Of a stretch of 64,000 nucleotides of DNA, positions 6,188 to 8,136 are shown piece by piece. Each line of letters begins with the position of its first letter. The stretch's first letter is position 1. A model generated the notes under the pieces. It was not told where the DNA came from, did not search any database, and saw nothing but the letters and a program-made list of their open reading frames with translations. The position numbers were made by a program, and so were the translations under genes. The stretch is from a virus (lineage: Duplodnaviria; Heunggongvirae; Uroviricota; Caudoviricetes), in IMG/VR virus record IMGVR_UViG_2693429668_000006; one strand, written 5' to 3'.

Positions 6188-6400
6188 TTAACAGATTCTG
6201 ACGGCTAAAGACCCGGAGCCGGTATTGAGAAGCGTGAAGCGTTTGTTGTTAAGTTCGAATATAAAGCCAGTTGTGTCATTCACACCAACCTGAATCTGCT
6301 CATTCGGTAGATCGGTGAGGATGTCAGCTACACACTCATCAGCTAATTTCTGTACGTGTCCGATCTCAAGAGCGATTAGGCTGGAAATAGTGGTGTTCAT
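6188..6400 (-). CDS. hypothetical protein (70 aa)
   Basis: ORF track; sits at head of the minus-strand operon downstream of a divergent promoter region; no motif recognised. Confidence 0.4.
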   Translation of the reverse strand: MNTTISSLIALEIGHVQKLADECVADILTDLPNEQIQVGVNDTTGFIFELNNKRFTLLNTGSGSLAVRIC

Positions 6401-6577
6401 TCAATCAATCCATTCTAACTTATACTATGGTAAGGAATACTACTAAAATCTATATCAATACTGAATACATTCATATCATATGCAAGTTGATTTTCTTACC
6501 TGTTTTGGGCTAATTTTTCTCCGTGCAATGGCCTTTAACCGGTCTTTTAAGTGCCTATCGAAAAAAATGATAATAGC

Positions 6578-6605
6578 TTTACAACCCTAACCTTTGATGT
6601 AATAT
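6578..6605 (+). promoter_or_regulatory. sigma70-like promoter for the XRE regulator gene
   Basis: TTTACA (6578-6583), 16-nt spacer, TAATAT (6600-6605); about 45 nt upstream of ATG at 6652. Confidence 0.5.
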
Positions 6606-6606
6606 C

Positions 6607-6620
6607 GGTAAGCACTTACC
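6607..6620. promoter_or_regulatory. palindromic operator-like site GGTAAGCACTTACC overlapping predicted transcription start
   Basis: Inverted repeat GGTAAG/CTTACC immediately after the -10 element; member of a motif family recurring in intergenic regions across the window. Confidence 0.5.
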
Positions 6621-6651
6621 AGAGAGAATTGAACGCGCAAAGGTTGTAACC

Positions 6652-7038
6652 ATGTCTGATAACAAGATTGAATTTATAGAAAGTCGCTACGCTGCTTTTA
6701 TCGCAGGGTTGATTGAATCCTCACCTATGAGCCAGGCCCAGATAGCCAAAACAATTGGGTATAAAAACGCCAACAACCTTTCTTTAATTAAAAGCGGCAA
6801 AATTCCTTTGCCTATCGATAAGGTTCGTCCGCTGGCGCTGGCACTGGGCATTGAGCCAAGTCGTCTTATGATGATGGTGCTGGAAGAACGCCAACCCGAA
6901 CTCGCAGCATTTTTATACAAAGAAGGCACTGCTCCTCTTAACGAGGACGAAAAACAGGTTCTTGCTGCATATAACGAGCGATTCGGTAAAGAGAAAGGCG
7001 CATCACAAAAGGTTGTTGAGGCCATAAAGTCTCTATGA
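6652..7038 (+). CDS. XRE-family helix-turn-helix transcriptional regulator
   Basis: 128 aa; HTH segment SQAQIAKTIGYKNANNLSLIKSGKIP typical of Cro/C1-type HTH_3 domains; good SD; divergent from minus-strand operon. Confidence 0.7.
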   Translation: MSDNKIEFIESRYAAFIAGLIESSPMSQAQIAKTIGYKNANNLSLIKSGKIPLPIDKVRPLALALGIEPSRLMMMVLEERQPELAAFLYKEGTAPLNEDEKQVLAAYNERFGKEKGASQKVVEAIKSL

Positions 7039-8136
7039 AAAATTTACACGAATAAGCTCTGTTGATAGACGATCTCCCTTAAATTTGTGGTCAATTTCGT
7101 CTAAATCCGGTTGCTCTACGATTGATGCGATGTACGTCGAGAAACTTTCTAAGGCGTCTCGCATCTCGTCCATATAATCGTGCCGGTCGTAGACCCGATC
7201 TATCCCCTCAAGACTGTGGTTCATGATTTTACGTGATACCTCCTGGCTTATGCCTAATGCTGGGAAGTAACTACGCGCAGTACGGCGCAAATCTCGGGGT
7301 GTAAATGGCTCAAGCTCCATCAGTTCTGGTCGTTCCAGAATACGACGTAATGCCTGGGCTATTGCCACTTTAGACATAGGAAGGTCTTTCCCGATTTTTT
7401 TATTCGAAGGCACGAGCCACTGGCTGTCTTTACCATATTCGAACAACTCTTCAATACAAGTGCGCATTAATGAGCTTAAAGGCAGAGAATGCTCACGGGC
7501 AGATTTGTTCCTCTTGCCTTGATTCCAAACCCCACGCTTAAGATTGAACTCACTTTTTTTAGCCCGCAGTACTTCGTCAGGTCGTCTTGCGGATACAAGA
7601 CATAGCCTGGCCGCCCATTTTGTACCAGCGCACACATTGAAGTAGTCCCATATATTCCAGAACACCCATACCTCTGCGTCGGTCAGCTTCCGCTCGCGAG
7701 GTGTGGGCTTTGCGCCACCGGCAACTTTGTTAAGTGACATATCGTTTAACGGTGACACGTCTATCATCCCCTGGAAGGCGCACCAGCTAAGGAACTGCTT
7801 CATCAGAGAGAAAACGCGGCGGCCCATAACAATTTTGCCATCCAGTATTAGTGGGTTGACCAGTTGGTTCACCATGAACCTATTAATGTCACTTACTTTT
7901 ACATCGGCAATGTGCGGCAAAACATGTATCAAAATACAATGAACAGCGATCTCTGGCCGACGTCTGGTTATCAGCAGAGATAAGCGAGTGAATAACATGA
8001 ATGCGTCCGAGAATCTCATGTCATTGCTGACCTGGGAGATCATAACGGCCTGCATTTGAGATGCTCTTTCGAGATACTCTATCGCCTCTTTTGAGGTGTT
8101 CTCCGCAGCGCGTGCTCTGTCAAAGCTATTTTTCAT
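7033..8136 (-). CDS. tyrosine site-specific recombinase (phage integrase family)
   Basis: 367 aa; C-terminal catalytic region with R...HSLEG...RVYDRHDY arrangement (LRRTARSYF, NHSLEGIDRVYDRHDY) consistent with the R-H-R-Y active site. Confidence 0.75.
   Translation of the reverse strand: MKNSFDRARAAENTSKEAIEYLERASQMQAVMISQVSNDMRFSDAFMLFTRLSLLITRRRPEIAVHCILIHVLPHIADVKVSDINRFMVNQLVNPLILDGKIVMGRRVFSLMKQFLSWCAFQGMIDVSPLNDMSLNKVAGGAKPTPRERKLTDAEVWVFWNIWDYFNVCAGTKWAARLCLVSARRPDEVLRAKKSEFNLKRGVWNQGKRNKSAREHSLPLSSLMRTCIEELFEYGKDSQWLVPSNKKIGKDLPMSKVAIAQALRRILERPELMELEPFTPRDLRRTARSYFPALGISQEVSRKIMNHSLEGIDRVYDRHDYMDEMRDALESFSTYIASIVEQPDLDEIDHKFKGDRLSTELIRVNFS

Follow-up and report, generated by a model that had tools for sequence, protein, structure and literature searches.

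Which functions meet where a small helix-turn-helix (HTH) gene and a tyrosine recombinase gene (int) converge in the tailed-phage sequence IMGVR_UViG_2693429668_000006 (IMG/VR; Caudoviricetes), and which DNA sites govern them? We took up this question in a stretch of 64,000 nucleotides (nt) of that record, hereafter the window, for which a sequence-only reading had proposed an autoregulated repressor beside a recombinase, the two perhaps forming a lysogeny or maintenance switch. The elements it had listed are all present at the positions it gave: a TTTACA-16-TAATAT promoter, a palindrome, the two open reading frames (ORFs) and the divergent region, with a 70-amino-acid (aa) ORF leading leftward at 6188–6400. 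On balance we favour the view that the region is a lysogeny and maintenance block composed of a repressor with its operator, a lox-like recombinase system and an SOS-controlled int promoter. Existing annotation calls the HTH gene product 'putative repressor' and that of the recombinase gene 'integrase', and each part is of a known kind: a Cro/C1-type repressor with operator, a Cre/loxP-like recombinase and a LexA-controlled promoter. New here are an inverted repeat of 13-7-13 base pairs (bp) that accompanies int, a LexA box over the int promoter and a boundary between backbone and cargo at the repeat edge; neither the repeat nor the LexA box was part of the sequence-only reading.

Region 6100–8400 has 98% nucleotide identity to Escherichia phage Cyrano, the plasmid prophage of LF82, and as much to other SSU5-like phage-plasmids; by sequence, the window is an SSU5/pHCM2-like phage-plasmid. 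In a distant-mode search, 840 plasmid records matched the block of 70-aa, HTH and int genes; pHCM2 and Y. pestis pMT are among them, and the hosts include Klebsiella, Escherichia, Enterobacter, Yersinia, Salmonella and Citrobacter. Every relative inspected (pHCM2, Y. pestis pMT, Enterobacter, pCAV and two types from Klebsiella) has one gene order: a cobT-like gene is followed by the leftward ~70-aa gene, the rightward HTH gene and the leftward recombinase gene, which overlaps the 3' end of the HTH gene, and variable cargo comes next. The complete relatives compared were E. coli pCTX and Klebsiella p1_020037. Among 5,426 complete E. coli genomes, 252 (~5%) carry the block, in 254 copies that are all plasmid-borne, with none on a chromosome.

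The HTH gene is preceded by a sigma-70-type promoter (Table 1) that matches 9 of 12 consensus positions. This match alone is no better than chance, since a promoter scan of 5900–8800 returned two promoter-like sites against 5.7 expected from shuffles. The promoter and its palindrome are significant because they are conserved across lineages. In a seven-lineage alignment the surrounding intergenic DNA has diverged and is only loosely alignable, yet both hexamers are invariant, and the 49-nt block at 6577–6625 that holds the -35, the -10 and the palindrome contributes 36 invariant columns, against 33 from the remaining 176 intergenic columns. What the sequence-only reading had called a good promoter is thus borne out by conservation and not by its consensus match, and the overlap of start site and palindrome that it had pointed to reappears as a conserved footprint. 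At this promoter Salmonella, Yersinia and Enterobacter carry the palindrome as AGTAAGCACTTACC, and Klebsiella carries it as the perfect GGTAAGTACTTACC. The alignment supports the view that promoter and palindrome are a conserved unit, so positioned that a bound protein would block initiation. Extra GGTAAG/CTTACC half-sites at ~6429 and ~6497 are not conserved and were dropped.

Sequence alone gives the HTH protein just a faint likeness to the XRE family. Its match to Pfam HTH_19 (19.7 bits, E 8e-4) lies under the 30.2 cut-off; phrog_8, a transcriptional regulator family, is matched at E 1e-11, and PDB sequence searches with this protein and with the recombinase (Int) gave no match. The AlphaFold model (predicted local distance difference test, pLDDT, 78) is all-helical with eight helices. 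Residues ~12–75 superpose on P22 c2, 434 Cro and C.AhdI with target template-modelling (TM) scores of 0.78–0.80 and root-mean-square deviations of 1.5–2.1, and the first ~65 ordered residues also match the DNA-binding domains of 434 repressor, SinR and Stl; Foldseek E-values for these matches are just 3e-3 to 6e-2. The model supports a five-helix XRE/Cro/C1-type fold for the N-terminal domain, and the earlier assignment to the XRE family is supported by this modelled fold, the Pfam match falling short of its cut-off. The putative recognition-helix segment, NN[LI]S[LM][IL]K, is kept even in homologues of 35–45% identity, and the homologues found were confined to phage-plasmid contigs of ~100 kb. 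In the model the C-terminal half consists of helices, and Pfam gives no Peptidase_S24 match to the protein, so RecA-stimulated self-cleavage is not expected.

The Cyrano orthologue of the window protein, 98% identical, is CYRAN_45. Annotated as 'putative repressor', CYRAN_45 is among the few prophage genes expressed in LF82 lysogens, 10-fold above the prophage background, and ciprofloxacin induces Cyrano 39-fold (PMC9928086). A repressor that autoregulates through the start-site palindrome would be the most economical reading of the HTH gene and its promoter.

Int matches PF00589 at 40.6 bits (cut-off 27.1) and the phrog_1 integrase family at E 5e-47, and is labelled 'integrase' in all records. 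Lambda Int was reached only through the family profile, direct PDB sequence search having failed to match; in this profile alignment the core-binding and catalytic domains align with lambda Int residues 66–342, and R185, K211, R281, R284, H307 and Y316 stand opposite lambda R212, K235, H308, R311, H333 and Y342. Five of the six catalytic positions are canonical, the nucleophile Y316 included, and on this alignment Int is most likely catalytically competent. The catalytic residues on which the sequence-only reading had made its recombinase depend are kept at R185, K211, R284, H307 and Y316. Residues 1–70 have no Pfam match and the arm-binding domain PF13356 is absent; among Int homologues that domain occurs only in those of ≤34% identity (P4/CP4-57-type), and the nearest sequence relatives outside the clade are P4/CP4-57-type integrases.

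Upstream of int stands a perfect inverted repeat, unique in the window and with 0 matches expected by chance; an att-like or resolution site near the recombinase, which the sequence-only reading had suggested searching for, thus has a candidate at 8235–8267. The arms are conserved in all SSU5-like lineages and the 7-bp AT-rich spacer differs between them. The repeat follows the recombinase gene well beyond this group, lying 16–109 bp upstream of int homologues down to about 45% identity. Chimaeribacter plasmids carry the same repeat 16–40 bp upstream of a 60%-identical int, with neither HTH gene nor phage context, and the layout recurs at int homologues of 44–50% identity in Pantoea (on a plasmid of 508 kb), Rahnella, Xenorhabdus, Providencia and Photorhabdus. 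In the latter five both arms are changed symmetrically to GTGACTCCAGAC, against the ATGATTCCATAC type. In Chimaeribacter, Rahnella and the Pantoea 508-kb plasmid the pair of int and site sits on unrelated backbones that have no HTH gene. Because the repeat is co-inherited and co-varies with int, and because its geometry is that of loxP and FRT, it is probably the cognate site of Int; comparison across these plasmids thus makes it the probable recombination site of the adjacent recombinase. Exact-arm sites occur in only seven species-representative genomes, on contigs of 12–169 kb (three of ~108–113 kb), none of them chromosome-sized. The repeat has no adjacent T-run and in this is unlike a terminator. 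In PhiR41_1 (8130–8164) the spacer, CTACTAT, is the exact reverse complement of the window spacer ATAGTAG, and the int-side flank is collinear.

Homology to relatives stops at 8267–8270 in a large share of records, amounting to hundreds of plasmids, and the repeat therefore marks the boundary between backbone and cargo. The cargo consists of whole gene blocks, such as caf1, toxin–antitoxin systems and immunity genes. In most relatives lineage-specific cargo takes over at the right repeat edge (window 8267–8290). From this edge runs the caf1 (F1 capsule) operon in Y. pestis pMT (3210–4716); in Klebsiella and Enterobacter a YafO toxin and colicin immunity are found there, and in Cyrano the highly expressed CYRAN_43. 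Single copies of the arm lie at three further places in the window. The copy within dnaE has the same position in Klebsiella and Citrobacter dnaE and is absent in Xenorhabdus and Providencia, whose site has other arms; it shares 20 identical nt with the copy at 13005, in inverted orientation. Inversion between these 20-nt repeats was considered and rejected: of 773 plasmids, 761 keep their collinearity through the dnaE arm, and a break at that point was seen in none. An integron-like cassette array was likewise rejected, the arms at 11980 and 13005 being inside conserved backbone and not at mosaic boundaries.

Between the repeat and the int start lies a candidate SOS control site. The putative int promoter matches 8 of 12 consensus positions, which is under the scan threshold, and was read from the sequence; its TTGAT and CCTAATATACTG are conserved across lineages. 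The window contains no CTGT-N8-ACAG other than the LexA box next to this promoter, and across all 112 kb of pCTX this box is the sole strong one. It stands next to the -10 TAATAT in nine lineages and reaches 19 of 20 matches in Klebsiella. On these grounds int is predicted to be SOS-inducible in the enterobacterial SSU5 group. Transcription of int runs antisense into the HTH gene with no conserved terminator between, and is co-directional with the operon of 70-aa, cobT, cobS and dnaE genes. A terminator-like hairpin on the int strand within the HTH gene (6812–6796) is not conserved in relatives and was taken as chance, and folding of the RNA from the int 3' end and anti-HTH region gave no unusual structure (z = -0.46). 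Klebsiella p1_020037 has a second strong LexA-type box, TACTGTTTAAACATACAGTG at 26299–26318, before an 87-aa gene, with no equivalent in pCTX; this gene could be an SOS-controlled antirepressor candidate.

The genome-wide motif that the sequence-only reading had noticed is real: with up to two mismatches, GGTAAGNNCTTACC has nine sites in the window against 1.5 expected, or 1.2 under a Markov-1 model. Among the complete relatives, pCTX has 12 sites against 2.1 expected and Klebsiella p1_020037 has 20 against 2.3. Most dispersed sites in Klebsiella share the perfect palindrome ATA-GGTAAGTACTTACC-TAT with the HTH promoter, and they form perfect palindromes of 14 to 20 bp. The dispersed motif is tied to the HTH-promoter palindrome because in Klebsiella both are the same 14-mer. 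The genes preceded by a site include ones for nucleotide metabolism and replication as well as structural genes. What the E. coli lineage conserves is an 8-mer, G[GA]TAAGTA, 15 of whose 19 copies fall within the intergenic 14% of the window. An 'immunity swap' pairing HTH variants with motif variants was not found, all lineages examined sharing the GGTAAG/TAAGTA half-site, and a literature search for the motif strings returned unrelated primer matches only. It is plausible, from these sequence comparisons, that the HTH protein binds the dispersed sites. One GGTAAGTA unit occurs in the loop of a 10-bp hairpin (GCGCTGAAAA...TTTTCAGCGC) at 10090–10140, downstream of the 442-aa cargo ORF.

Table 1. 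Positions of genes, control sites, repeat arms and dispersed motif sites in the window.
Feature	Position	Strand	Description
70-aa ORF	6188–6400	-	From the ORF list; leads a leftward operon, followed by cobT-like, cobS-like and dnaE genes
Sigma-70-type promoter of HTH gene	6578–6605	+	-35 TTTACA 6578–6583, 16-nt spacer, -10 TAATAT 6600–6605
Palindrome GGTAAGCACTTACC	6607–6620	.	GGTAAG-CA-CTTACC, 14 bp; over predicted start site, begins 2 nt past -10 hexamer; putative operator
128-aa XRE/Cro-fold protein	6652–7038	+	Probable prophage repressor, without peptidase domain
367-aa tyrosine recombinase (Int)	7033–8136	-	Convergent with HTH ORF, overlaps its 3' end by 6 nt
LexA box CACTGTATAAGTAAACAGTA	8163–8182	.	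16/20 matches to TACTGTATATATATACAGTA; abuts -10 TAATAT, between repeat and int start; putative
Putative int promoter	8182–8210	-	-35 TTGATC 8210–8205, 17-nt spacer, -10 TAATAT 8187–8182; LexA box directly after
13-7-13 inverted repeat AATGATTCCATAC-ATAGTAG-GTATGGAATCATT	8235–8267	.	Perfect; 99 bp upstream of int start; putative lox-like site
Single arm AATGATTCCATAC, then ATCTCAT	2204–2216	+	Inside dnaE codons ~84–88
Single arm AATGATTCCATAC	11980–11992	-	Upstream of tRNA cluster; positional counterpart in Klebsiella
Single arm AATGATTCCATAC + ATCTCAT	13005–13017	-	Just past stop of 71-aa gene; positional counterpart in Klebsiella
Dispersed site GGTAAGTA-GT-TACTTATC	3947–3964	.	Between cobT-like and cobS-like genes; counterpart between same genes in Xenorhabdus
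Dispersed unit ATA-GGTAAGTA	8653–8660	+	79 nt upstream of 442-aa ORF
Dispersed dyad GATAAGTA-N6-TACTTATC	12546–12567	.	Upstream (minus strand) of tRNA cluster region
Dispersed site GATAAGTA-GATACA-TACTTA	16070–16089	-	62 nt upstream of 260-aa ORF
Dispersed site GATAAGTAAGTAACTACCTACC	21438–21459	-	33 nt upstream of ORF preceding DnaB-like helicase gene (gene names here borrowed from relative pCTX)
Dispersed site GGTAAGTA-TA-TACCTAC	27024–27040	-	Downstream of large tail gene
Dispersed site ATAGGTAAGTA-TT-TACTTAAT	31233–31250	-	Between two large tail genes; GC-rich hairpin after
Dispersed site GATAAGTAAGTAC...	38153–38173	-	Tail gene cluster; hairpin after
Dispersed dyad AGTAAGTA-TA-TACTTACC	44639–44656	.	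Head–tail gene cluster
Dispersed site GATAAGT/AATTATC	48218–48231	-	Between major capsid gene stop and terminator-like hairpin; Klebsiella counterpart perfect ATAGGTAAGTACTTACCTAT, same place
Dispersed site GGTAAGT/AATTATC	51641–51654	-	Between terminase large subunit and portal genes; Klebsiella counterpart AGTAAGTACTTACC
Dispersed site AATAAGTAAGTGATTACTTA	56930–56949	-	Divergent region between ParB-like genes and helicase gene

The block that we favour would work as follows. The 128-aa protein, made from the sigma-70 promoter, would bind the start-site palindrome as a dimer, limiting its own synthesis and acting as prophage repressor. Through the recurring GGTAAG/GRTAAGTA half-site it would probably also silence lytic genes, the step we put forward least firmly. 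Int would act like Cre on loxP, as its anatomy and the co-variation of its site suggest, with two monomers seated on the 13-bp arms of the repeat. Its task would be to resolve plasmid multimers, and it might also circularise DNA or exchange it between co-resident elements; exchange at the repeat would explain why the backbone ends and variable cargo starts at the site edge. The LexA box would hold int off in undamaged cells and DNA damage would switch it on. SOS-driven int transcription, being antisense to the repressor gene, might conceivably counteract the repressor. Since the 254 E. coli copies are without exception plasmid-borne, the best reading of Int, as far as sequence can tell, is a resolution system of the Cre/loxP kind that SOS would induce, and not a chromosomal integrase.

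Several observations weigh against this model. The start-site palindrome is absent at the HTH promoter of the Xenorhabdus, Providencia, Photorhabdus and Serratia relatives, where a half-site, TACTTAT or GATAAGT, is found at the -35 or adjoining it, and the LexA box is absent from the Xenorhabdus, Providencia and Chimaeribacter relatives. The first catalytic His (lambda H308) is Arg (R281) throughout the Int clade, remote homologues retaining His, and the three conserved single arms elsewhere are unexplained by a simple lox model. Other observations concern the dispersed motif. The GRTAAGTA unit is asymmetric, nearly always oriented with the downstream gene and located 15–80 nt upstream of its start. 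In the E. coli lineage most sites read GRTAAGTA-NN-TACTTAYC, which puts 4 bp more between the half-sites than the HTH promoter has, and only the gene-distal half is well conserved, the second half (TAC.TA, after two extra bases) being weaker; oriented sites with one well-conserved half are unusual for dimeric repressor operators. Sites precede early and late genes and occur within long operons, and some fall between a stop codon and a terminator-like hairpin (48231, 38173 and 31250 in the window; 9497 and 47675 in Klebsiella). Directly ahead of the dispersed sites, sigma-70-like promoters show no more than a modest excess (7 against 2.1; 13 against 2.9), a count that is inflated by the motif's own AT-rich flank and does not separate operator from promoter.

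These features of the motif invite another explanation, a strong rival although we lean against it: GRTAAGTA may not be an HTH operator but a phage-specific promoter (consisting of a -10 only, as in T4 late promoters), a site for an activator or an antiterminator, or an RNA hairpin in 5' leaders. The HTH protein would then regulate only locally, at its own promoter, the leftward early operon or int, and a motif RNA hairpin would be bound by another factor. The asymmetric motif with its well-conserved half pointing with the downstream gene, its position ahead of both early and late start codons as well as inside long operons, and the GC hairpins or terminators after several sites all suit this explanation, and the variable half-site arrangement (14-mer, 18-mer, everted in pCAV) is better suited to a monomeric unit than to a fixed dimer site. 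GATAAGTA agrees with the T4 late promoter sequence, TATAAATA, at six of eight positions. A possible second factor is also encoded: a 200-aa FljA-family protein ('repressor of phase-1 flagellin'; 59252–59854, + strand; PF03614, E 2.5e-84), unexpected on a phage-plasmid. The FljA family is known as an mRNA-binding translational repressor, and it is conceivable that the FljA-like protein is an alternative binder of the hairpin-forming motif. The Klebsiella sites speak for an operator, since perfect 14- to 20-bp palindromes like that at the HTH promoter are the classic pattern of repression and autoregulation. The annotations of the two complete relatives hold no phage RNA polymerase or sigma factor, and a promoter directly ahead of a terminator (48231 in the window; 47675 in Klebsiella) makes little sense. 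The proposal that the HTH protein is the likeliest binder of the motif stays no more than plausible: the Klebsiella sites favour it, and the asymmetric, oriented and more widely spaced sites of the E. coli lineage count against it.

The recombinase and its repeat admit two further readings, both of which we judge unlikely. Int might be a true integrase that moves the phage-plasmid or its cargo into and out of the chromosome, the repeat being an attP core. The P4/CP4-57-type integrases as closest relatives outside the clade, the uniform 'integrase' annotation and the usual attP layout of a site beside int are in keeping with this, as are some int and HTH homologues on contigs of 0.3–0.9 Mb, although look-up showed only ~106-kb plasmid contexts; Y. 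pestis pMT1 is also said to integrate into the chromosome. It is set against the complete lack of chromosomal copies among the 254 in E. coli, the 12–169 kb contigs to which exact-arm sites are limited, the missing arm-binding domain and Xis-like gene, perfectly symmetric arms typical of simple lox/FRT-type sites, and homologues with the same site on resident megaplasmids. Of the two roles that the sequence-only reading had left open, integration thus appears improbable, int and site being found on non-phage plasmids as well, and multimer resolution, together with exchange between elements, fits better. Alternatively the repeat might be a regulatory operator, for instance of Int or another protein on the int promoter, or a structural hairpin, with the scattered arms as further binding sites. 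Three conserved single arms at unrelated positions, one within dnaE, would be accommodated in this way; the Chimaeribacter repeat, only 16–40 bp from the int start, lies inside the promoter region, and the reverse-complemented PhiR41_1 spacer could come from a loop flip in any hairpin. Neither an operator nor a hairpin sits well with a backbone/cargo boundary at the repeat edge in hundreds of plasmids, with arms that co-vary with the recombinase lineage or with the lack of a T-run. Moreover, 13-bp arms at 20-bp centre-to-centre spacing are the geometry of loxP and FRT and not that of typical HTH operators.

The favoured block can be carried a step further, to an account of induction that we regard as rather doubtful: in E. 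coli-type SSU5-like phage-plasmids the trigger might be neither a classical antirepressor nor cleavage of the repressor but the LexA-controlled int promoter. Once DNA is damaged, transcription would set out leftward through int, pass antisense across the gene and promoter of the non-cleavable repressor, and enter the early replication operon of 70-aa, cobT/cobS-like and dnaE genes. A single promoter would in this way silence the repressor by convergent transcription, start the lytic programme and supply the recombinase.

The 70-aa ORF that would lie in the path of such transcription matches phrog_2627 (E 9e-41) and is kept with the HTH gene in all relatives, a 34-kb Photorhabdus plasmid among them; its AlphaFold model is unusable (pLDDT 43). 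On that plasmid (33.8 kb) the trio of int, HTH and small gene (2501–4517) has Rep3 and ParA-like genes as neighbours and lacks the cobT/dnaE context, so the trio can move as a unit outside the ~100-kb phage-plasmids. Elsewhere in the window, four transfer RNA (tRNA) genes are clustered at 11160–11787 on the minus strand (Ser-tga, Thr-tgt, Tyr-gta and Asn-gtt), Cyrano having three at the matching place, and an Rfam scan gave tRNAs only. The Chi sequence GCTGGTGG has 15 copies across the whole window against ~1.3 expected from base composition.

SSU5-related phage-plasmids are the largest set of related phage-plasmids known (PMC7969092). The group includes S. Typhi pHCM2, Y. pestis pMT1, which bears the locus for the F1 capsule, and elements of E. 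coli and Klebsiella that carry resistance; CTX-M-55 is encoded on the relative pCTX. In the literature searched we found no description of the lysis–lysogeny switch, operators, SOS input or recombination site of SSU5-like elements, nor of their operator family, of a lox-like site that comes in two arm specificities, of the LexA box or of the convergent layout. For an element family that is common and medically relevant, the switch is now directly testable with exact sequences. The candidate LexA box could explain the reported ciprofloxacin induction, the putative lox-like site marks the swap point of virulence and resistance cargo, and a recombinase/site pair with two natural specificities could be developed into a genetic tool.

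How does the proposed block compare with known switches? On the repressor side, the window protein shares with 434, P22 C2, lambda CI and P1 C1 a Cro/C1-type HTH domain and a 14-bp palindrome over its own promoter. The many operators of P1 C1, dispersed across a plasmid prophage, recall the dispersed sites of the window. Unlike these repressors, the window protein has no S24 domain and belongs to a family confined to SSU5-like elements, and its putative sites are oriented and variable in half-site spacing. The switches of coliphage 186/P2 and of N15 offer a non-cleavable repressor, a LexA-controlled promoter as SOS input and face-to-face transcription units. Any likeness to them is at this stage entirely hypothetical; in the window the putatively LexA-controlled gene is that of the recombinase and not a recognisable antirepressor gene, and the overlap takes in a whole gene.

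On the recombinase side, the closest parallel in organization is Cre/loxP of P1, together with ResD/rfsF of F and Rsd/crs of Salmonella virulence plasmids. As there, a plasmid-prophage tyrosine recombinase without an arm-binding domain is encoded beside a simple putative site of two inverted 13-bp arms and a short spacer, with multimer resolution or cyclisation as the expected role. The window Int differs in having no sequence similarity to these enzymes beyond the superfamily, its nearest relatives being lambda/P4-type integrases, and in a spacer of 7 instead of 8 bp, an Arg in place of the first catalytic His, a LexA box on its promoter and a site that marks a cargo boundary. Lambda/P4/CP4-57-type integrases give its best sequence and profile matches, whereas Int lacks their N-terminal PF13356, has no E. 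coli chromosomal copy and is paired with a symmetric site. The integron integrase IntI reportedly has a LexA-controlled promoter with attI adjoining. Both systems thus combine a recombinase promoter overlapped by a LexA box, a site just upstream and variable cargo that starts at the site; unlike integron cassettes, the window cargo consists of whole gene blocks that no attC-like second sites bound, and the single arms lie within conserved backbone.

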